DNA of 64,000 nucleotides from Escherichia coli (GCF_003018235.1 NZ_CP027437.1); one strand, 5' to 3'; shown: positions 1 to 24,675, numbered from the stretch's first letter. Numbers and translations: made by a program. The notes: generated by a model not told the origin, from the sequence alone.

Positions 1-199
1 AACTGACAACAAGGGGAAAACGCACGACGTGCTGACCGGAAGTGATGACGGTCGCCACAGCAACACGTCTCTGGCGTGGGGAGCTGGCGTGCAGTTTAAC
101 CCGACCGAATCCGTGGCCATTGATATTGCTTATGAAGGCTCCGGCAGTGGCGACTGGCGCACTGACGGTTTCATCGTGGGTGTCGGTTATAAATTCTGA
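1..199 (+). CDS. lom: Outer membrane protein Lom (Ail/Lom family), 3' end only
   Basis: Frame ending ...VGVGYKF then TGA at 197-199, a typical Ail/Lom C-terminal beta strand; located immediately upstream of stf as in lambda. Confidence 0.7.
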   Translation, partial: TDNKGKTHDVLTGSDDGRHSNTSLAWGAGVQFNPTESVAIDIAYEGSGSGDWRTDGFIVGVGYKF

Positions 200-225
200 T
201 TAGCCAGGTAACACAGTGTTATGAC

Positions 226-252
226 AGCCCGCCGGTTCAGGCGGGCTTTTTT
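226..252 (+). terminator. Rho-independent terminator after lom
   Basis: Stem AGCCCGCC / GGCGGGCT with a 6-nt loop, followed by a T-tract (247-252). Confidence 0.7.
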
Positions 253-263
253 GTGGGGTGAAT

Positions 264-3200
264 ATGGCAGTAAAGATTTCAGGTGTACTGAAAGACGGCA
301 CAGGAAAACCGGTACAGAACTGCACAATCCAGCTGAAAGCAAAACGTAACAGCACCACGGTGGTGGTGAACACGCTGGCCTCAGAAAATCCGGATGAAGC
401 CGGGCGTTACAGTATGGACGTTGAGTATGGTCAGTACAGCGTTATTCTGTTGGTGGAGGGATTCCCGCCGTCACATGCCGGGACTATCACCGTGTATGAA
501 GATTCTCAACCCGGTACGCTGAATGATTTTCTCGGTGCCATGACGGAGGATGATGCCCGTCCGGAGGCACTGCGCCGTTTTGAAGTGATGGTGGAAGAGG
601 TGGCGCGTAACGCGTCCGCAGTGGCACAGAACACGGCAGCCGCGAAGAAGTCAGCCGGCGATGCCAGCACATCAGCCCGTGAGGCGGCAACCCATGCGAC
701 TGATGCTGCAGACTCAGCACGCGCAGCCAGCACGTCAGCCGGACAGGCCGTGTCGTCGGCTCAGTCAGCGTCTTCCAGCGCAGGAACTGCATCAGCAAAG
801 GCCACTGAAGCATCAAAAAGTGCTGCCGCTGCAGAGTCCTCAAAAAGCGCGGCGGCCACCAGTGCCGGTGCGGCAAAAACGTCAGAAACGAATGCTTCAG
901 CGTCACAACAATCAGCAGCCACTTCTGCATCCACCGCGACCACGAAAGCGTCAGAAGCTGCCACCTCAGCCCGGGATGCGGCGGCCTCAAAAGAGGCAGC
1001 GAAATCATCAGAAACGAACGCATCCTCGAGCGCCAGTAGTTCCGCTTCCTCGGCAACGGCGGCAGGAAATTCCGCGAAGGCGGCAAAAACGTCCGAGACG
1101 AACGCCAGGTCTTCTGAGACGGCAGCGGGACAGAGCGCCTCAGCTGCGGCAGGCTCAAAAACAGCGGCTGCATCATCTGCCAGTGCCGCGTCAACAAGTG
1201 CCGGGCAGGCCTCAGCCAGTGCCACTGCCGCCGGAAAATTGGCAGAAAGCGCTGCATTGTCCGCTTCAACAGCCACAACGAAGGCTGGCGAAGCCGCTGA
1301 ACAGGCCAGCGCAGCAGCGAGGTCTGCATCCGCAGCGAAGACATCCGAAACGAACGCGAAAGCGTCGGAAACCAGTGCAGAATCCTCAAAAACGGCAGCT
1401 GCATCGTCCGCCAGTTCGGCGGCGTCATCGGCATCATCTGCGTCTGCTTCAAAAGATGAGGCGACCAGACAGGCATCAGCAGCGAAAGGCAGCGCCACGA
1501 CGGCATCCACGAAGGCGACAGAGGCTGCTGGCAGTGCGACGGCGGCAGCACAGAGCAAGAATACGGCAGAATCCGCAGCAACGCGCGCCGAGACAGCAGC
1601 TAAACGGGCAGAGGATATTGCATCCGCCGTGGCGCTTGAGGATGCAAGTACGACGAAAAAGGGGATAGTACAGCTCAGCAGTGCGACCAACAGTTCGTCT
1701 GAAACGCTGGCGGCAACGCCAAAGGCAGTAAAATCAGCCTATGACAATGCAGAGAAACGTCTGCAGAAAGACCAGAACGGCGCTGATATACCCGATAAGG
1801 GACGCTTCCTGAACAACATTAACGCGGTCAGTAAAACAGACTTTGCTGATAAGCGTGGTATGCGTTATGTGCGGGTTAACGCTCCTGCAGGTGCAATATC
1901 TGGAAAATATTACCCTGTTGTTGTTATGCGTTCTGCTGGCTCAGTAAGCGAACTGGCATCAAGGGTCATTATCACCACGGCAACGCGAACCGCAGGCGAT
2001 CCGATGAATAACTGCGAGTTTAACGGATTTGTTATGCCTGGTGGCTGGACTGACAGGGGGCGTTATGCTTATGGAATGTTCTGGCAATATCAAAACAATG
2101 AACGAGCCATCCACTCAATAATGATGAGTAATAAGGGCGATGATTTGCGCTCTGTGTTCTATGTTGATGGCGCTGCTTTCCCTGTTTTTGCGTTTATCGA
2201 AGATGGCCTGTCAATATCCGCACCTGGTGCTGATCTCGTTGTTAATGATACGACCTATAAGTTTGGGGCAACAAATCCGGCGACTGAATGTATCGCGGCG
2301 GACGTTATCCTTGATTTTAAGAGTGGGCGTGGTTTTTATGAGTCTCATTCGTTAATTGTTAACGATAACTTGTCGTGCAAAAAACTTTTTGCCACAGACG
2401 AAATTGTAGCGCGTGGTGGTAATCAGATTCGAATGATAGGTGGGGAGTATGGTGCATTATGGCGTAATGATGGCGCTAAAACTTACCTGCTGCTTACCAA
2501 TCGAGGTGATGTTTATGGTGGCTGGAATACATTAAGACCGTTTGCTATTGATAACGCAACCGGCGAACTGGTTATTGGAACCAAACTGTCCGCAAGTCTG
2601 AACGGTAATGCATTAACAGCAACAAAGCTGCAAACGCCAAGACTGGTTTCTGGTGTTGAGTTTGATGGTTCCAAAGATATTACTTTAACCGCCGCGCATG
2701 TGGCTGCTTTTGCCAGAAGGGCAACGGATACATATGCCGATGCGGATGGTGGCGTTCCCTGGAATGCCGAATCAGGCGCTTACAATGTCACCCGCTCTGG
2801 CGACAGCTATATTCTGGTTAACTTCTATACCGGAGTCGGAAGTTGCCGGACCCTGCAGATGAAGGCGCATTACAGAAATGGTGGTCTGTTCTACCGTTCT
2901 TCAAGAGATGGCTATGGTTTTGAGGAAGACTGGGCAGAAGTTTATACCTCGAAAAATCTTCCACCAGAAAGCTACCCAGTCGGCGCACCAATCCCGTGGC
3001 CATCAGATACCGTTCCGTCTGGTTATGCCCTGATGCAGGGGCAGACTTTTGACAAATCTGCCTACCCGAAACTTGCAGCCGCTTATCCGTCAGGCGTGAT
3101 CCCTGATATGCGTGGCTGGACGATTAAGGGCAAGCCCGCCAGTGGTCGTGCCGTATTGTCTCAGGAACAGGATGGCATTAAATCGCATACCCACAGCGCC

Positions 3201-3677
3201 AGCGCATCCAGTACGGATTTGGGGACGAAAACCACATCGTCGTTTGATTACGGCACTAAATCCACGAATAACACCGGGGCGCATACGCACAGTCTGAGTG
3301 GCTCTACGGGGTCTGCCGGTGCTCATACTCATGGTAATGGTATTCGTTGGCCAGGAGGCGGCGGTTCTGCGTTAGCATTTTATGATGGCGGTGGGTTCAC
3401 TTATGTCCAGGATTCACAGTATCAAGTAAGCCCGGGGACTTCTTCCAGTAGATCGTATTATCAACGTATTCAGACACAGTCAGCAGGTGCTCATACCCAC
3501 TCGCTGTCTGGTACTGCAGCAAATGCTGGCGCACATGCACATACTGTAGGTATTGGTGCGCATACGCACTCGGTTGCGATTGGGTCACATGGACACACCA
3601 TCACCGTTAACGCTGCTGGTAACGCGGAAAACACCGTCAAAAACATCGCATTTAACTATATTGTGAGGCTCGCATAA
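264..3677 (+). CDS. stf: Side tail fibre protein, lambda Stf-like mosaic (about 1137 aa from the ATG at 264)
   Basis: N-terminus [26 protein letters not shown]... and C-terminus ...[31 protein letters not shown] match my recollection of lambda Stf; a long Ala/Ser/Thr-rich low-complexity segment and a central block resembling Rac StfR. The ORF track starts at GTG 258; ATG 264 is preferred. Confidence 0.9.
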
Positions 3678-4252
3678 TGGCATTCAGAATGAGTGAACAA
3701 GCACGGACCATAAAAATTTATAACCTGCTGGCCGGAACTAATGAATTTATTGGTGAAGGTGACGCATATATTCCTCCTCATACAGGTCTGCCTGCAAACA
3801 GTACCGATATTGCACCGCCAGATATTCCGGCTGGCTTTGTGGCTGTTTTCAACAGTGATGAGGCATCGTGGCATCTCGTTGAAGACCATCGGGGAAAAAC
3901 GGTCTATGACGTGGCTTCCGGCGACGCGTTATTTATTTCTGAACTCGGCTCATTACCGGAAAATGTCACCTGGTTATCCCCGGAAGGGGAGTTTCAGAAG
4001 TGGAACGGTACAGCCTGGGTGAAGGATACGGAAGCAGAAAAACTGTTCCGGATCCGGGAGGCGGAAGAAACAAAAAACAGCCTGATGCAGGTAGCCAGTG
4101 AGCATATAGCGCCGCTTCAGGATGCTGTGGATCTGGAGATCGCAACGGAGGAAGAAACCTTGTTGCTGGAAGCCTGGAAAAAGTATCGGGTGTTGCTGAA
4201 CCGTGTTGATACATCAACTGCACCGGATATTGAATGGCCAGCCCTACCGTAG
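3677..4252 (+). CDS. tfa: Tail fibre assembly protein Tfa
   Basis: 191 aa, [24 protein letters not shown]..., lambda Tfa-like; the start overlaps the stf stop (TAATG). Confidence 0.9.
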
Positions 4253-4349
4253 GGTAAGATATATAAATTCTATAATTAGAAGTATCTTTCCATTTAAGGC
4301 TAGGAAGGGGGGCTTGGAAAACGTAAGGAATCTCACACCGAGATTATTT

Positions 4350-4940
4350 TTATATATCAGGTGTCTGATTTTTTGCTTTAGCTCTTAAAATGGTTTGCCG
4401 CGAGGTTTTGAATTCTTGGGCAATGTCACTTATATTTATACCTGACTTAATTTGCTCTAGTACCCTCTGTATTTGTTCATCATTTAACACAGGTGGGCGA
4501 CCAAATCGCTTTCCTGCGCCCCGTGCTCTTAATATCCCTGAATGAGTACGCTCAAGTAAAAGGTCTCGCTCAAATTCAGCGACTGCTGAAATTACTTGCA
4601 TCATCATTTTTCCAGGTGGACTGGTCAGGTCAACGCCCCCCAATGCTAAGCAATGCACTTTGATACCTGCTTTGGTCAGTTGTTCCACCGTTTTACTGAT
4701 ATCCATTGGATTACAACCGAGGCGATCCAGTTTTGTGACAATCAATGCATCACCTCTTTTCAGTCGATCAAGCAACTGGTTAAAACCAGGACGCTCACTG
4801 GTTGCTGCTGAGCCGCTAATTTGTTCTTCAATTATTTGCTGAGATTTGATGTTAAAACCTGCACTTTCGATTTCCCGACGTTGATTTTTGGTTGTCTGTT
4901 CCAGAGTTGATACCCGACAGTAAGCATAAATTCGAGACAT
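4350..4940 (-). CDS. pin: Serine recombinase, Pin-type DNA invertase
   Basis: 196 aa, [15 protein letters not shown]... with a resolvase/invertase N-terminal catalytic domain and C-terminal HTH; same size and context as K-12 pinQ/pinR. Confidence 0.9.
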
Positions 4941-5258
4941 AGTGAGATCTTCTATACGAAATTGGTGTACATATCATAATGCATCTCAGAAAATAATTTT
5001 GATTATTTTTGTACATATTTGTATGTACACGTTCGAAAATAAACGAATGCGTATGCAACCCCGTAATTTTGGTGAGACCCAAAATCGATTTTGTGAAAAA
5101 TGGCCTTAACTCGGTTTGTTTTTCGAGTTCCGGGGGGACTCAAGGAAGAAGAATAGTGTTGCGTGTTATTTTAACCAGATTTCAAGTTGTTTGGTCGTGA
5201 AAAAGTGGAGCAAAATGTTGTTAAAGTGGAAAAATGATAAAAAAGTAAGTTTATTATA

Positions 5259-5492
5259 TTACATTTTACCATTTAAATTTTTGTTGTCTTTAAGAACTGA
5301 TATCGCTGTTTGTAATAATTCTTTGTTATCCAGCCATGACTTTTTCTTTATGTTTCCTTCAATGTAATCAAGCAATGTTCTGGTATTGATAGGTCTTCCC
5401 TGTTTTGCTACTTCCACTACAGCATCCCCTAGGATAATTCTTACTTCAGGAAGCTGCGCAGGGAACCACTTTAGGGTGTCTTTTGATTTCAT
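5259..5492 (-). CDS. ydfK: Small prophage protein YdfK/YnaE family (cold-shock-induced in K-12)
   Basis: 77-aa product MKSKDTLKWFPAQLPEVRIILGD... from the internal ATG, which has an AAGGA RBS 9 nt upstream; the 88-aa ORF from 5525 is the less likely start. Confidence 0.8.
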   Translation of the reverse strand: MKSKDTLKWFPAQLPEVRIILGDAVVEVAKQGRPINTRTLLDYIEGNIKKKSWLDNKELLQTAISVLKDNKNLNGKM

Positions 5493-6277
5493 GAAGATAT
5501 TCCTTAAAATATTATTGATTTTCATTGCGATATTGTATGTCTGATTCAGGATATGTTGACTTATACATCGGTTTTGTCTGGGTTATTGGATATGCCAATC
5601 CCTAATTTTATTAGAGCATGACTAAAAATGCTGAATATGATAAGGAGCGAAGTGATTATCAGTATGCTGTTCATATAGCCTCGAATTAGTAATGTGTTAT
5701 ATATGATATAGTTGACAATTTTTATCCTGGGTGTTCTTAAAGTTCGTAGATAAACATTGTCGTTTCAGGTATACAGGAATGCTAACAGGTGGCGGCAAAA
5801 ATCAGGCGGTTTATGGCGCAAGCTGAAGTGGCAACTGCAAACTATCTTATGCAGAGACTCTACACGGATTGGGTTTAAAAGTATACATAGATAACAGTTT
5901 TTATCTGAAGAAGAAAAATATCAAGGTGATATAGCCTATATGCCTTTGATGCGGAGGAATGAATGTGATGGGAGTGATGTATCTGAATAGTTGAAAAACC
6001 GCAGACACGCCTTATGCAAGAACGTGCTGCGGTTGGCTGGTAAATTTTTCGATAGTGCGAGTATTGAATGATTTCCAGCCGTTATTGATTTTACGCGTAA
6101 ATCCATGAAAAAACTACTTATCTGTTGGGGAGTTTTTTTGGGGCATATATGGGACAGAAATAGGCCCCAGATAGACACTGAGATCGAACTTAGGATGCTT
6201 TTTAAAAAATGCAACTATCTGAAAAAACCTAGAAAACGCCAAGGAAACCACAGGATGGGAAAAAACACCTGTGAATT

Positions 6278-7561
6278 ATGGATTTCCAGTTATATTCGCT
6301 CGGCGCAGCGTTAGTGTTTCATGAAATATTTTTTCCTGAATCATCAACGGCAATGGCGTTAATTCTGGCAATGGGAACCTACAGTGCAGGTTATGTGGCG
6401 CGTATTGTCGGAGCATTTATTTTCGGCAAAATGGGCGACAGAATCGGGCGTAAAAAAGTGCTCTTTATTACCATCACTATGATGGGGATCTGTACCACCT
6501 TAATTGGTGTGCTGCCGACCTATGCACAAATTGGTGTGTTTGCGCCAATTTTGCTGGTGACGCTGCGTATTATTCAGGGGCTGGGGGCAGGCGCGGAAAT
6601 TTCCGGTGCCGGCACGATGCTGGCGGAATATGCACCAAAAGGTAAGCGCGGAATTATCTCCTCATTTGTGGCTATGGGAACTAACTGCGGAACCTTGAGC
6701 GCAACGGCAATCTGGGCCTTTATGTTCTTCATTCTCAGTAAAGAGGAACTGCTGGCGTGGGGATGGCGTATACCGTTCCTGGCGAGCGTTGTCGTGATGG
6801 TCTTTGCTATCTGGTTGCGTATGAATCTGAAAGAAAGCCCGGTCTTTGAGAAGGTTAACGACAGCAACCAACCGACAGCAAAACCTGCACCTGCTGGTAG
6901 CATGTTCCAGAGCAAATCCTTCTGGCTGGCAACAGGGCTGCGTTTTGGTCAGGCTGGTAACTCCGGTTTAATTCAGACTTTCCTTGCAGGCTATTTAGTA
7001 CAGACGTTATTGTTTAACAAAGCAATTCCAACAGATGCATTGATGATCAGTTCGATTCTCGGCTTTATGACCATTCCGTTCCTTGGTTGGTTATCCGATA
7101 AAATTGGTCGCCGGATCCCGTATATTATTATGAATACCTCCGCGATTGTGCTGGCATGGCCAATGCTTTCTATCATCGTAGATAAAAGCTATGCCCCGAG
7201 CACCATTATGGTGGCACTGATTGTGATTCATAACTGTGCGGTGCTGGGATTATTTGCTCTGGAAAACATTACCATGGCAGAAATGTTCGGCTGTAAAAAC
7301 CGCTTTACCCGGATGGCCATTTCTAAAGAAATTGGTGGTCTTATCGCTTCCGGTTTTGGTCCTATCCTGGCGGGTATTTTCTGCACCATGACGGAGTCCT
7401 GGTATCCGATCGCCATTATGATCATGGCATATTCAGTGATTGGTTTAATCTCTGCGCTGAAAATGCCAGAAGTGAAAGACCGTGATTTAAGTGCGCTGGA
7501 AGACGCTGCGGAAGATCAACCGCGTGTTGTCAGAGCTGCGCAACCTTCCAGAAGTCTTTAA
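6278..7561 (+). pseudogene. ydfJ: MFS metabolite:H+ symporter YdfJ, 5'-truncated at the prophage junction (may still be expressed from the internal ATG)
   Basis: 427-aa ORF beginning MDFQLYSLGAALVFHEIFFP..., which by comparison with KgtP/ProP-type transporters is missing roughly 25-30 N-terminal residues; an in-frame stop lies at 6272-6274. Confidence 0.75.
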
Positions 7562-7649
7562 ATCCTCAATCCCTTCTCTTACCGGAGAGGGGATTTTTAT
7601 TCATATAACAAAACATGTAGCTTGCCATATTTAAATTTAAGGAATTGTT

Positions 7650-9110
7650 ATGGGAAATAATTTGTTATCAGCAAAAGCGACGCTCCCTGTTTATGATCGT
7701 AATAACCTGGCCCCAAGAATTGTTCATTTAGGCTTTGGCGCATTTCACCGTGCGCATCAGGGCGTGTATGCCGATATTCTTGCTACAAAACATTTCAGTG
7801 ATTGGGGATATTATGAGGTCAACTTAATCGGCGGCGAACAGCAAATTGCCGATTTACAACAGCAAGATAATCTTTATACCGTTGCGGAAATGTCGGCCGA
7901 TGCGTGGACGGCTCGCGTCGTTGGCGTCGTTAAAAAAGCCTTGCACGTACAGATTGATGGCTTAGAAACCGTGTTGGCTGCGATGTGTGAACCGCAAATC
8001 GCGATTGTCTCTCTGACAATCACCGAAAAAGGGTATTTCCACTCTCCGGCGACCGGACAGTTAATGCTCGATCACCCGATGGTCGTTGCCGACGTACAAA
8101 ATCCCCACCAGCCGAAAACTGCAACAGGGGTGATTGTCGAGGCGCTGGCTCGCCGTAAAGCGGCAGGACTTCCCGCATTTACCGTCATGTCATGTGACAA
8201 CATGCCAGAAAACGGTCATGTTATGCGTGACGTTGTCACTTCCTACGCGCAAGCTGTTGATGTAAAACTGGCACAATGGATCGAAGAAAACGTGACTTTC
8301 CCATCAACAATGGTGGACCGTATTGTGCCCGCAGTGACAGAGGATACGCTGGCGAAAATCGAACAACTTACCGCTGTGCGCGATCCTGCTGGCGTTGCAT
8401 GTGAACCTTTCCGCCAGTGGGTAATAGAAGATAACTTTGTTGCCGGACGTCCGGAATGGGAAAAAGCGGGAGCCGAACTGGTTAGTGATGTGCTGCCTTA
8501 TGAAGAGATGAAGTTGCGCATGCTCAACGGCAGTCATTCATTCCTGGCGTATCTGGGTTATCTTGCCGGATATCAGCACATTAATGACTGCATGGAAGAT
8601 GAACATTATCGTCATGCAGCGTATGCCTTGATGTTGCAGGAACAAGCGCCGACGTTGAAAGTGCAGGGCGTTGATTTGCAAGATTACGCTAATCGATTAA
8701 TTGAACGCTATAGCAACCCGGCGCTACGTCATCGAACCTGGCAGATTGCGATGGATGGCAGCCAGAAATTGCCACAGCGGATGTTGGATTCTGTTCGCTG
8801 GCATCTGGCGCATGACAGCAAGTTCGATCTGCTGGCGCTGGGCGTCGCAGGTTGGATGCGTTATGTCGGTGGTGTTGATGAACAGGGAAATCCGATAGAA
8901 ATCAGTGACCCACTGTTACCTGTTATTCAGAAGGCTGTACAAAGTAGTGCCGAAGGGAAAGCGCGCGTCCAGTCATTGCTGGCGATTAAGGCGATCTTTG
9001 GTGATGATTTGCCAGACAATAGCTTGTTTACTGCAAAAGTGACGGAAGCGTACTTGTCTTTATTAGCGCATGGTGCGAAAGCGACCGTGGCGAAATATTC
9101 CGTGAAGTAA
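7650..9110 (+). CDS. ydfI: Mannitol-dehydrogenase-family oxidoreductase (D-mannonate oxidoreductase-like)
   Basis: 486 aa with an N-terminal Rossmann motif ([13 protein letters not shown]); synteny with ydfJ. Confidence 0.9.
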
Positions 9111-9525: not shown

Positions 9526-10212
9526 TTACTCTTCGCTAAACCAGTCGCTGTTTTCCTGACGGATCTGGCGCACGGATTCGCTGATTTCCTGCAAATGTTG
9601 CGTCATTGCACGTTCTACCGCATCGCCATCACGTTTTTGCAGGGCAGAGAAAATCTCAAGATGCTGGCGTAACAGCATTTCTGGTGGAGAAACGTGGTCG
9701 AAACTCATATAGCGCACGCGATCAACGGTCGCTTTCAGGTTCTCAATGGTATCCCACGCCAGTTGACAGTCGGCAATCTGGGTCAGGAGTTGATGGAAGT
9801 TGTCATCAAGTTCAAAAAAATCATCCAGTTGCTTGCGCTCAATGGCAATGCGTTGCTGGTGAAGATTTTGTTCCAGTTGGTAGCACTGGCTTTCGGTAAT
9901 CATGCTCGCCGCCCGACGCGCCACCGCGCACTCAATGGCCTGACGGATAAAACTGCCGTTGCGCACCTGGGCCATGGAAATTTTGTTGACGTAGCTGCCA
10001 CGCTGCGGACGAATTTGAATCAGGCCGTTTTCCGCCAGTTTAATAAAGGCTTCACGAACCGGCTGGCGTGACACATTGAAACGAACAGAAACTTCTTTTT
10101 CCGACAACGGTGTGCCTGGTGCAATCAGGCAATGGACAATGTCGCGACGAAGAATACGATAAATCTGCTGATTGACAGGCTGTGTGGGATTAAGTTGCGT
10201 TTCGACGGTCAT
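9526..10212 (-). CDS. rspR: GntR/FadR-family transcriptional regulator RspR (YdfH)
   Basis: 228 aa with an N-terminal winged HTH ([21 protein letters not shown]) and a FadR-type C-terminal domain. Confidence 0.9.
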
Positions 10213-17900: not shown

Positions 17901-18596
17901 TCGCGGGAAAAAGTACTTTACCTGGAACTCGAAAATATTGCTGTAAAGTAACGAATAATCCAGCGGAATAGAGTTACTGTCCACAGCCTGGGTCTGAATT
18001 TTAAGTATGGGATCCCGTGGGCTGATCCGTAAAATACTGGCGATTTCTGGGGTAGGAAAAGTAGGGGAGAAAGTTTCAAAGGTGCCAATGATTTTGATCC
18101 CGCATTCGTTCTCAATATACGAAAATTTGGATTTTTGCATATGTGCTACGGTTAAATCAGGAAAACGTGCCACTGACATCCACGTTTCTTCTAATTGTGC
18201 TGCATTATCCTCAATGAATCGCAGTCTCTTTATGTAATAAACCTGCTCACCAGTCACTAAATTCAGCTCAGTCGCAATAGGGGGAGAAGCATCCTGCACT
18301 TCAAATTTCATAATCTGACTTCCTGCCTCCTTGCCGCTTTTATGCGCAATTTCACTGAAGCTGTTCATGTGATCAATGTGTGCAACAAAATTCTTTTTTT
18401 GAATATATGTTCCTGAACCATGCTTTCTATGAATAATTCCTTCGCCTTCCAGCAAGGATAATGCCTTACGCAGGGTATTACGCGAAACATTATAACGAAC
18501 AGCGAGTTCAGCTTCTGACGGCAACAAATCACCAACATGCCATGAATAGCCATTGATCTCGGATTTAAGTAAGCGGGCAATCTTTTGAAAAATCAC
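17898..18596 (-). CDS. GntR/HutC-family transcriptional regulator (HTH plus UTRA effector domain)
   Basis: 232 aa; HTH segment AELAVRYNVSRNTLRKAL; divergent from the PTS operon. Confidence 0.85.
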   Translation of the reverse strand: MIFQKIARLLKSEINGYSWHVGDLLPSEAELAVRYNVSRNTLRKALSLLEGEGIIHRKHGSGTYIQKKNFVAHIDHMNSFSEIAHKSGKEAGSQIMKFEVQDASPPIATELNLVTGEQVYYIKRLRFIEDNAAQLEETWMSVARFPDLTVAHMQKSKFSYIENECGIKIIGTFETFSPTFPTPEIASILRISPRDPILKIQTQAVDSNSIPLDYSLLYSNIFEFQVKYFFPR

Positions 18597-18755
18597 TTTT
18601 GCACCTTTTAAGAGCCATTGAAAACAAGGAGTTGAGTCCTGATTGGTTTATCGTATGGCCGAGTCGTTTAATTATTACCCTGATGTTGAACAACTTTATT
18701 GCTGTATTACTGTGATCAATGTACCAGGACGTATAGCTACTGCGGGATATGATAT

Positions 18756-18768
18756 TTACACAATGTAA
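18756..18768. promoter_or_regulatory. Candidate operator palindrome TTACA-caa-TGTAA in the regulator/PTS divergent region
   Basis: Perfect 5-bp inverted repeat about 30 bp upstream of the IIB start codon. Confidence 0.3.
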
Positions 18769-18794
18769 TCTGTTATATACCAGTAAGGGAAAAT

Positions 18795-19106
18795 ATGAAA
18801 AAGATATTGTTAGTTTGCGCTGCGGGCATGTCAACCAGTATGCTGGTTAAACGTATGATTGATCATGCTAACGCTATTTCACTTGAAGTTAATATTTCCG
18901 CATTGGCGATTGCAGAGGCTAAAGGGAAAATTAAAAATAACGAAGTTGACGTTGTTTTACTTGGCCCGCAAGTTCGCTTTCAGAAACCAGAGATTGAAGC
19001 TGTTGCACAGGGGAAAATGCCTGTAGCTGTTATCGAGATGAAAGACTATGGCACCATGAACGGACAGGCAGTTCTTGAATTTGCGATGAAACTACTGCAA
19101 GAGTAA
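18795..19106 (+). CDS. PTS lactose/cellobiose-family EIIB component
   Basis: 103 aa, MKKILLVCAAGMSTSMLV... with the catalytic Cys in the CAAGMSTS motif. Confidence 0.9.
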   Translation: MKKILLVCAAGMSTSMLVKRMIDHANAISLEVNISALAIAEAKGKIKNNEVDVVLLGPQVRFQKPEIEAVAQGKMPVAVIEMKDYGTMNGQAVLEFAMKLLQE

Positions 19107-19229
19107 GAATCTAATATTATTAAACTATTACCTGAACTAACTTTTCACACATCATAAAATGGATATGGCATACATGCTTTATTGGGATGTATAAATATCC
19201 AGAACAACACGTATAAAAAAATGAGATTA

Positions 19230-20543
19230 ATGACCTCATTCGAACGTGGAATGGAACGTTTTCTTGTTCCAGTTGCTATCAAGTTAAACTCACAAAAACA
19301 TGTTGCAGCGGTGAGAGATGGATTCGTTTTTACGTTTCCAATTATCATGGCAAGCTCATTAATTATATTAATAAACTTTGCCATATTATCGCCAGACGGC
19401 TTTATTGCCGGACTGCTGCATCTGAACAGCGTTTTTCCCAACCTTGAAAAAGCACAAGCTATTTTTACTCCGGTAATGAATGGCTCTGTAAATATCATGT
19501 CAATTATGATTGCTTTCCTGGTCGCCAGAAATATGGCGATTAGCTATGAGCAAGATGATCTTTTATGCGGATTAACGGCAATAGGCGCATTTTTTATTGT
19601 TTATACGCCATATCAGATGATAGATGGACAAGCATTCCTGACGACCAAATATCTCGGCGCACAGGGGTTGTTTGTTGCTGTTATCGTTGCATTAATCACC
19701 AGTGAAATATTTTGTCGCTTAGCTCGAAACCCAAAAATCACCATAACGATGCCGGCATCTGTACCTCCTGCGGTAGCGCGTTCATTTAAAGTTTTATTGC
19801 CAATATTTTTTGTCATGGTGTTCTTTTCCGCACTTAATTATTGCCTGACACTGATATCCCCGGCAGGATTAAACGATCTCATTTACACATTAATCCAGAC
19901 GCCGCTCAAACATATGGGAACGAATATCTTTGCGGTAATTATCCTGGGGGCTGTGGGTAATTTCCTGTGGGTGCTGGGGATCCACGGACCTAATACCACC
20001 TCGGCAATTCGAGAAACTGTTTTTTCTGAGGCTAATCTGGAGAATCTCTCCTGGGCCGCTCAACACGGCACTACCTGGGGCGCGCCATATCCGATTACCT
20101 GGACTTCTATTAATGATGCATTCGCCAACTGCGGCGGTTCAGGCATGACGTTGGGATTATTGTTGGCTATTTTCATCGCTTCTAAGCGTGCGGAATACCG
20201 TGATCTGGCAAAAATGTCATTTATCCCCGGTATTTTCAATATCAATGAACCGATAATGTTCGGCCTTCCTATTGTACTTAACCCCATCATGATGGTGCCG
20301 TTTATTCTGGTTCCCATTGTTAACTGTGCCATTGGTTACTGCTTTGTTTCGATGGAAATTATTCCACCGGTTGCTTATGCCGTGCCCTGGACTACGCCCG
20401 GACCTTTAATTGCTTTCCTCGGAACCGGGGGAAACTGGCTGGCGTTACTGGTGGGTTTTTTATGTTTAGGTGTGGCGACAATGATCTATTTACCTTTTGT
20501 TATTGCAGCCAACAAGGTCAATAACATGACAACTAACGGATAA
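19230..20543 (+). CDS. PTS lactose/cellobiose-family EIIC permease
   Basis: Polytopic membrane protein; the N-terminus aligns to ChbC ([15 protein letters not shown]). Start is uncertain: ATGs at 19182, 19221, 19230 and 19251. Confidence 0.85.
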   Translation: MTSFERGMERFLVPVAIKLNSQKHVAAVRDGFVFTFPIIMASSLIILINFAILSPDGFIAGLLHLNSVFPNLEKAQAIFTPVMNGSVNIMSIMIAFLVARNMAISYEQDDLLCGLTAIGAFFIVYTPYQMIDGQAFLTTKYLGAQGLFVAVIVALITSEIFCRLARNPKITITMPASVPPAVARSFKVLLPIFFVMVFFSALNYCLTLISPAGLNDLIYTLIQTPLKHMGTNIFAVIILGAVGNFLWVLGIHGPNTTSAIRETVFSEANLENLSWAAQHGTTWGAPYPITWTSINDAFANCGGSGMTLGLLLAIFIASKRAEYRDLAKMSFIPGIFNINEPIMFGLPIVLNPIMMVPFILVPIVNCAIGYCFVSMEIIPPVAYAVPWTTPGPLIAFLGTGGNWLALLVGFLCLGVATMIYLPFVIAANKVNNMTTNG

Positions 20544-20564
20544 TCCCATTTACACAGGAAGGAG

Positions 20565-20882
20565 ATGTTGATGTTTGCAGATGAAGAACTTGTTATGGAG
20601 TTACTGATCAACGCGGGACAGGCACGTTCTGATGCGATGGAAGCCATACGTTGTGCCGGGCAAAAAGACTGGCAGGGCGCAACTCAGCTAATGGCCAGTT
20701 CGGAATTAGCCTGTCTTCAGGCACATAAGATTCAGACCGCGTTAATTAGTCAGGATGAAGGTTGTGGCAAAATAGTAGTTAATTTAATTCTGGTTCATGC
20801 ACAGGATCATTTGATGAATGCAATATTATGCCAGGATTTAGCCAGGGAAATTATTTCATTAAGAAAAGAGCTCCATGCCTGA
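20565..20882 (+). CDS. PTS lactose/cellobiose-family EIIA component
   Basis: About 105 aa, ChbA-like (LVHAQDHLM motif); alternative start at 20571 with a GGAG RBS. Confidence 0.85.
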   Translation: MLMFADEELVMELLINAGQARSDAMEAIRCAGQKDWQGATQLMASSELACLQAHKIQTALISQDEGCGKIVVNLILVHAQDHLMNAILCQDLAREIISLRKELHA

Positions 20883-20934
20883 TTTTTTCCTCCAGTGCGA
20901 TAGCTGGAGGAAATTATTACACTCTTAAGGATAA

Positions 20935-23985
<3,051 letters not shown>

Positions 23986-24012
23986 GACTTCAGGAAGATA
24001 TTACGGAGATAT

Positions 24013-24036
24013 CAGGCTCTGTGATCAGAGCCTGAC
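24013..24036. terminator. Hairpin between the convergent glucosidase gene and marB
   Basis: TCAGGCTCTG / CAGAGCCTGA stem with a 4-nt loop. Confidence 0.55.
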
Positions 24037-24041
24037 AATAA

Positions 24042-24260
24042 CTACATAGCGTGTTGATTATAATAGGGCACGCCGAGCGCATCCGACTTATCACTGCCAG
24101 TACCCATGTGATTTAAATCAAACGGTGGTTGTTCCTGCGATGGGGGAACAACCACGACATTGGCACAGGAAGTAACAACCTGCTGCGTGGTTTGTTCCGC
24201 AATGCCCTGCGTGGAAAAGAGAATAAACGCAGCTGCTATTGCGGATAAAAGTGGTTTCAT
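24042..24260 (-). CDS. marB: Periplasmic protein MarB
   Basis: 72 aa, MKPLLSAIAAAFILFSTQGIA... Confidence 0.9.
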   Translation of the reverse strand: MKPLLSAIAAAFILFSTQGIAEQTTQQVVTSCANVVVVPPSQEQPPFDLNHMGTGSDKSDALGVPYYNQHAM

Positions 24261-24291
24261 GATTGCCTCAGTGACGTTGTCACGTTATCAA

Positions 24292-24675
24292 CTAGCTGTT
24301 GTAATGATTTAATGGATGTAAAAAGCGCGATTCGCCCTGCATATTGGTCATCCGGTATTTATGTGGCGGAACATCAAAGTAATTTTTGAAGGTTCGGGTC
24401 AGAGTTTGTTGCGACTCGAAGCCATATCGTTCTGCCAGATAGAGTATCGGCTCGTTACTTTCCTTCAGCTTTTGCGCGATTTCCGTCATCTTACGGCTGC
24501 GGATGTATTGGCCTAATGAATGACCGGTTTCTTTTTTAAACATCCGTTGCAGGTGCCATTTAGAGTAACCCGAACGCTCTGACACTTTCTCCAGTGACAG
24601 TGGCGATTCCAGGTTGTCCTCGATCCAGTCCAAAATGCTATGAATGGTAATAGCGTCAGTATTGCGTCTGGACAT
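24292..24675 (-). CDS. marA: AraC-family multiple antibiotic resistance activator MarA
   Basis: 127 aa from [31 protein letters not shown]... Confidence 0.95.

Follow-up and report, generated by a model that had tools for sequence, protein, structure and literature searches.

Why does ydfJ begin so abruptly in this Escherichia coli chromosome? In the stretch of 64,000 nucleotides analysed here (the window, with positions counted from its first letter), an open reading frame at 6278..7561 (+) encodes 427 amino acids beginning MDFQLYSLGA, and an in-frame TGA at 6272-6274 stands upstream of its ATG at 6278-6280. An earlier note, made from the sequence alone, had pointed to the abrupt start and to the stop, both of which are indeed present, and had attributed them to a prophage that integrated into ydfJ and cost the gene its first 25-30 residues. 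Alignment to an uninterrupted ydfJ, the check that the note had proposed, yields the att core and a missing 5' segment of 84 nt, with phage genes on the left of the junction and chromosomal genes on the right. The favored reading, to which we assign a probability of about 97% from sequence comparison, is that 6272-6289 is the attR of a Qin-type (= Kim, PPydfJ) lambdoid prophage inserted in ydfJ. The junction and its att site have already been published (PMC6379469, PMC8112680), and the analysis has found a known feature again.

A prophage junction that removes 28 codons of ydfJ

Three features define the junction:

6272..6289 (+): attR att sequence, TGAATTATGGATTTCCAG, 18 bp, from a three-way alignment of attB, attL and attR
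6272..6274 (+): in-frame TGA from the phage arm, from the att alignment
6278..7561 (+): 'ydfJ, the 3' 1,284 nt of the gene (codons 29-455 plus stop), MHS transporter, from TIGR00883 and alignment to the intact gene

Where ydfJ is intact, as in the NA3664 and ECO12 genomes, it is a gene of 1,368 nt encoding 455 aa, 57 bp after rspB. The N-terminus of the intact protein reads MTIEKHERSTKDLVKAAVSGWLGTALEF|MDFQLY, which makes the ATG at 6278 the native Met29. Exactly 28 codons (84 nt) are therefore missing from the window copy, within the range that the earlier note had estimated, and the upstream rspAB genes are missing with them. The residue encoded at 6278 is not where full-length homologues start; intact YdfJ begins 28 residues earlier. 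The published account of Qin describes the same event, in which the prophage inserted at the 5' end of ydfJ and the promoter and 28 codons were lost (PMC6379469).

The att core was located by aligning attB (from NA3664), attL (from KGu016, which has the same right end) and attR (from the window). The three read ...GCGCTTGAATTTATGGATTTCCAGTTAT..., ...GCGCTTGAATTTATGGATTTCAAGAGTCAT... and ...ACACCTGTGAATTATGGATTTCCAGTTAT..., respectively, and have in common an exact core of 11 bp, TTATGGATTTC, at 6276-6286. Similarity extends more widely, as TGAAT(T)TATGGATTTC(C/A)AG over 6272-6289, with one difference in the length of the T-run and one C/A difference. Because these two polymorphisms bound the region, strand exchange must, on this alignment, have occurred between the T-run (6276-6277) and 6287, at about 6278-6286. 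An 18- or 19-bp att sequence was defined for ydfJ prophages by Nakamura et al. 2021 (PMC8112680, S7 Fig legend), and the sequence at 6272-6289 agrees with it. Consistent with this position, similarity to uninterrupted genomes starts at 6272 when window positions 5200-7700 are searched by megablast against 5,426 complete E. coli genomes. The TGA stands in the ydfJ frame because the phage att is one T shorter than attB, and the phage therefore gives ydfJ a stop and no replacement N-terminus. In this respect the junction is unlike those of Rac (in ttcA) and e14 (in icd), which in K-12 are likewise lambdoid or cryptic prophages within a gene; those two bring a replacement for the gene end, and the host gene stays functional (PMC6379469).

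To which known element does the junction belong? Around the core, the window attR matches the Qin attR of K-12 MG1655 without a difference for at least 45 bp in either direction, and the K-12 attL is likewise identical to that of KGu016 in the 45 bp displayed to its left and right. K-12 has the same truncated 1,284-nt ydfJ (b1543) and the same order of ydfK (b1544), ynfT (b4748), P arm and core; its annotated "cryptic prophage Qin" (1632277..1652745) overlaps the start of ydfJ and has intQ, ynfP and rspB at its far end. The left end of the prophage (attL and int) lies outside the 64-kb window and was read only in close relatives. In K-12, KGu016 and S19-651, the core is duplicated at attL, where a 5' fragment of ydfJ sits beside int and xis; in S19-651 and KGu016, attL is next to rspB, and beyond it come genes for a tyrosine integrase and an excisionase together with a lambdoid gene set. 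Over window positions 1-6300, the closest genome is S19-651 (99.8% identity, colinear annotation), with a lambdoid prophage of ~45 kb that has intact int and xis beside rspB and an IS3 in a tail gene. K-12 Qin differs in being only ~20 kb long, with intQ a pseudogene. The right end in the window is also much less decayed than that of Qin: it has lom and a side tail fibre ORF of full length (1,137-1,139 aa, according to which start is taken). The prophages PPydfJ of STEC and EPEC (Nakamura et al. 2021, PMC8112680) have the same site, core and conserved P arm as the window.

The junction cannot have arisen by chance, because 2,009 genomes are uninterrupted and the core is duplicated at attL in relatives; there is no evidence against the junction itself. 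Could ydfJ nevertheless have its natural start at 6278, as the gene for a 427-aa protein preceded by ordinary intergenic DNA? In favor of this, RefSeq lists K-12 b1543 as a plain 1,284-nt CDS with no pseudogene label, and the 427-aa product scores above the TIGR00883 cut-off. However, a continuous 455-aa gene directly follows rspB in those 2,009 genomes, the DNA upstream of 6278 is phage sequence common to other prophages, and the ATG is 18 nt away from the best Shine-Dalgarno-like pairing, too distant for that pairing to make a well-spaced ribosome-binding site. The uninterrupted alleles rule out a natural start, and next to no probability attaches to this reading. It is just as improbable that ydfJ was truncated beside a prophage by a deletion, an insertion sequence or illegitimate recombination, with no site-specific integration. 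Such events are frequent in these elements, as illustrated by the IS3 in S19-651, an IS2 in K-12 intQ and a deletion in a dinI-like gene of the window, but the missing 84 nt are intact at attL, where they end in the same core beside int and xis, and the break falls at precisely the same base in four other junctions whose right ends differ in content. Site-specific integration of a Qin-type prophage is thus the reading followed below.

Integration, excision and the phage side of the junction

How would the prophage have entered ydfJ? A phage tyrosine integrase would have recombined attP with the identical 11-bp core at codons 28-31 of the gene. DNA to the left of the core (P arm, dinI remnant, ynfT, ydfK, pin, tfa, stf and lom) is of phage origin and DNA from the core rightward is chromosomal, the ATG at 6278 happening to fall within the core. 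The insertion has parted codons 29-455 and ydfI from the first 28 codons and rspAB, which would now lie ~45 kb away at attL by int/xis. At the other prophage end, one would expect rspB, 57 bp, and then the initial 84 nt of ydfJ, with ...GAATTTATGGATTTC as their last letters and AAGAGTCAT... and int after them. Excision would be expected to yield an attB with GAATTTATGGATTTCCAG and an attP with GAATTATGGATTTCAAG, and recombination at the core would probably restore ydfJ exactly, as an in-frame attB. An attP amplicon has been described for a related PPydfJ (PMC8112680). The KGu016 integrase, whose gene is outside the window, matches PF12167 (Arm-DNA-bind_2, 84.4 bits) and PF00589 (Phage_integrase, 66.3 bits); because it has an arm-binding domain as well as a tyrosine recombinase catalytic domain, it is, by domain content, a lambda-Int-like heterobivalent enzyme.

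Where would such an enzyme bind? The sequence adjoining the core on its phage side suggests candidates:

6139..6271 (+): phage P arm of attR, ~135 bp, conserved in four other junctions, from GGGGCATATATGGGAC
6139-6145, 6150-6156 and 6256-6262 (+): candidate arm-type sites TGGGGCA, TGGGACA and TGGGAAA, from a motif scan

The interpretation of 6139-6271 as a P arm draws on its conservation in all four of the other junctions that were aligned (K-12 MG1655, O157:H7 17B6-2, 504237 and KOr024). In an attP reconstructed from the window P arm, the core and the P' arm of S19-651, TGGGGCA occurs three times in one orientation compared with 0.03 expected from shuffles, an enrichment that is overstated because the same sequences served both to discover the motif and to score it. 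If one or two mismatches are allowed, the P-arm repeats lie at -137 (6139) and -126 (6150), with 11-bp phasing, and at -20 (6256); those of the P' arm, which is outside the window, lie at +70 and +81 from the core, again with 11-bp phasing, and an IHF consensus, TATCAAATAGTTA, is found at +26, between the core and the P' repeats. The TGGGGCA-type repeats are candidate Int arm-binding sites. Their arrangement, with the repeats at about -137/-126 and +70/+81 and the IHF consensus, may correspond to P1/P2, H' and P'1-3 of lambda, and the map as a whole is lambda-like (attL-int-xis ... J-lom-stf-attR, with a heterobivalent integrase). Lambda itself integrates at an intergenic site between gal and bio, whereas the ydfJ core lies inside a coding sequence and differs from that of lambda.

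The remainder of the phage side, from the left edge of the window to the P arm, carries the following features:

1..199 (+): 3' end of an Ail/Lom-family outer-membrane protein gene that runs off the left edge, from S19-651 annotation
264..3677 (+): side tail fibre gene, from S19-651 annotation; the longest ORF starts at 258
3677..4252 (+): tail fibre assembly gene, tfaQ-like, from the ORF and S19-651 annotation
4350..4940 (-): Pin-type serine recombinase gene, pinQ/pinR-like invertase, from the ORF and annotation
5259..5492 (-): ydfK, cold shock protein of 77 aa, from RefSeq annotation
5561..5674 (-): ynfT, small protein of 37 aa, from PF23676 and RefSeq relatives
5675..6036 (no strand): non-coding, common to the right end of Rac, ending in a hairpin at 5997-6034, from BLAST against K-12 Rac
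6111..6146 (-): dinI-like remnant, with the ORF MPQKNSPTDK* at 6114-6146, from the junction alignment and translation

The phage-side genes left of the junction are thus lom, the side tail fibre gene, tfa, pin, ydfK and ynfT. Inverted repeats of at least 20 bp are absent from positions 1-6400 even though the Pin-type invertase gene is intact, which suggests that the invertible tail-fibre segment for Pin is missing or has degenerated. A strong match to Rfam IS009 (RF02111) at 4020-4218 (+), with 221.7 bits against a gathering score of 117, falls within the tail fibre assembly gene, in its 3' part.

Is the spacer between ydfK and ydfJ empty of genes? The earlier note had found no convincing gene in 5526-6277, which is wrong, since the interval contains ynfT. 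Its product scores 91.9 bits against Pfam PF23676 (YnaM-like; cut-off 27), and RefSeq annotates the gene at 5561-5674 (-) in the 99.8%-identical S19-651 and as b4748 in K-12. The annotated start of ydfK is 5492; position 5525 is only the start of the longest ORF. Beyond ynfT, the hairpin at 5997-6034 (-18.7 kcal/mol, z -2.3) is followed by a T-rich run and could be a terminator or the 3' end of an sRNA at the edge of a module shared by Rac and Qin. A sub-threshold match to Rfam CssrB, a Shigella sRNA, covers 5894-6031 (+) and so ends in this hairpin, with 28.7 bits (gathering score 76, E 0.0045). Searched in E-value mode, positions 4000-8000 contain no credible Rfam RNA at the junction; a sub-threshold Rfam match to mir-263 at 6246-6277 was rejected as chance. 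On the minus strand, a promoter-like site at 5909-5880 would provide ynfT-ydfK with a leader of ~200 nt, recalling the long 5' UTRs of cold-shock genes; the scanned region had no excess of such sites over shuffled sequence. The stretch between the hairpin and the core, 6037-6271, is specific to ydfJ-integrating phages and belongs to the integration module. Both ends of a dinI-like gene lie within it, one in the remnant listed above and the other at about 6095-6113, with ~190 bp deleted relative to an O157-type ydfJ prophage; an intact DinI-like CDS of 80 aa occupies the same position in the ydfJ prophage of O157:H7 (L007 2589-2831). The dinI-like start codon overlaps a conserved GGGGCAT motif of the P arm.

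The cargo to the left of this module resembles Rac, which has the module stf-tfa-pin-ynaE/ydfK-ynaM/ynfT in common with the window prophage. Positions 10-3307 are 97.5% identical to the K-12 Rac stfR region, and 3480-6036 are 94.7% identical by BLAST to the right end of Rac (tfaR-pinR-ynaE-ynaM). The similarity stops at 6036, which leaves ~235 bp to the ydfJ core and clearly marks where the mosaic passes from cargo to integration module. One explanation, at about even odds, is that the stf-tfa-pin-ydfK-ynfT cargo came from a Rac-like prophage through homologous exchange, which would leave only the ~235 bp by the core from the original phage. The level of identity over 10-6036 and its abrupt end would fit such an exchange, as would the finding that other ydfJ prophages have the same P arm with different cargo (nleG/DUF1076 effectors, dinI). 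The mosaicism may equally predate both phage lineages, however, and exchange with Rac would complement integration at ydfJ rather than compete with it.

The truncated ydfJ gene

What remains of ydfJ after the insertion? The 427-aa product is still recognizable as an MHS transporter, with 130 bits against Pfam MFS_1 and 452.9 bits against TIGR00883 ("metabolite/H+ symporter"; cut-off 443.45), a match that begins at profile position 7. For intact YdfJ the score is 462.9 bits and the match runs from profile position 1, so the truncation costs only six positions. Nonetheless, the MHS N-terminus and the first transmembrane segment are incomplete: the 28 lost residues include roughly half of the first hydrophobic segment, which Kyte-Doolittle hydropathy draws as one broad segment at residues ~13-47. 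No sequence relative of YdfJ on which TM1 could be placed was found in the PDB at E <= 1e-5. Annotation of the gene varies, in that the RefSeq/PGAP record for S19-651 labels 6278-7561 a pseudogene with "missing N-terminus", as opposed to the plain CDS of K-12. The upstream DNA argues against independent expression of the gene. From 5511 to the ATG at 6278, a promoter scan of the + strand detected nothing sigma-70-like, and across 5200-6500 the counts of promoters and terminators were not above shuffled expectation. The truncated gene is probably silent or non-functional, a loss of function that is likely rather than proven.

The junction could be as described and the gene nonetheless be expressed from Met29 and functional, in which case the insertion would have rewired the gene rather than inactivated it. 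This is unlikely, although several observations favor it. The truncated ORF is unbroken in six of six interrupted genomes sampled; dN/dS is 0.01-0.07 in nearly all pairs of the eight alleles compared, a set in which selection and recent prophage turnover are not separable; and the small loss from the MHS profile and the K-12 annotation as a CDS point the same way. Against these stand the lack of a sigma-70-like promoter and of a well-spaced ribosome-binding site, and the removal of about half of the first hydrophobic segment. Moreover, the prophage may have been gained and lost repeatedly and recently, which by itself would account for the conservation in interrupted genomes. Indeed, over all 1,284 nt the truncated allele of K-12 is 100% identical to that of ECO12, which is intact. 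The few nonsynonymous changes among the eight alleles are found only in interrupted copies, a weak hint, in view of the small numbers, of relaxed constraint. The window copy has one private change, Gly to Ser (TYGAGYV to TYSAGYV).

Frequency of the insertion and consequences for the host

How common is insertion at this site? A 300-bp attB probe finds an uninterrupted site in 2,009/5,426 complete E. coli genomes; in 3,364 others its match is broken in two or incomplete. In ~62% of complete genomes, attB is thus not intact. The specific arrangement ydfK-ynfT-attR-'ydfJ is found by megablast in 1,986 of the 5,426. Other prophages use the same core with different cargo at the right end. For example, the O157-type PPydfJ carries nleG-like DUF1076 effectors and an intact dinI-like gene by attR, in place of the pin-ydfK-ynfT and dinI remnant of the window, and 504237 and KOr024 have other content again.

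On the chromosomal side, the junction is followed by 'ydfJ, ydfI, ydfZ, rspR, ydfG and dcp, two of which bear on the effect of the insertion:

7650..9110 (+): ydfI, fructuronate-reductase-like, downstream of ydfJ, from NCBIfam NF011611 (650 bits)
9526..10212 (-): rspR (ydfH), the rspAB repressor, from the ORF, S19-651 annotation and PMC8249747

In uninterrupted strains (NA3664, ECO12), the gene order is rspA-rspB-ydfJ-ydfI, with rspR nearby. The prophage lies within this cluster and has therefore removed 'ydfJ and ydfI from rspAB and its promoter. RspR represses the rspA promoter, and in K-12 Qin parts rspR from rspAB (PMC8249747). Without the insertion, ydfJ and ydfI are probably transcribed together from the rspA promoter, under the control of RspR. 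No open-access literature linking ydfJ to gulonate catabolism was found, and no such link is claimed.

Farther along the chromosome, S19-651 annotation places a gene cluster for a GntR regulator, cellobiose-type PTS IIB/IIC/IIA components, a carbohydrate porin and a 6-phospho-beta-glucosidase at ~18372-24549, between eamA and marB, and a large ECSE_1600-family autotransporter from 47225, after lsrK. We take both to be accessory regions absent from K-12.

Might the insertion do more than disrupt a gene? It is very doubtful that the prophage acts as a reversible switch of the rspAB-ydfJ-ydfI sugar-acid cluster or, as the other possibility, that the 427-aa remainder is expressed and selected. A reversible switch is conceivable because the nearest relative keeps intact int and xis, and recombination at the core would rebuild an in-frame attB. 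If the remainder were kept by selection, this would explain why its ORF is intact and its dN/dS low even though so many genomes are without an intact attB.

What, then, does the junction mean for E. coli and its prophages? Its significance is little beyond correct annotation: the ORF at 6278 should be annotated as a 5'-truncated ydfJ with no genuine start, and the spacer should carry ynfT and the attR and P-arm features. The prophage at ydfJ splits rspAB-ydfJ-ydfI and parts rspR from its target, as is already in print. More broadly, the ydfJ site is a hotspot at which lambdoid phages with varied cargo, from STEC effectors to the cold-shock genes of Qin, use one integration module.
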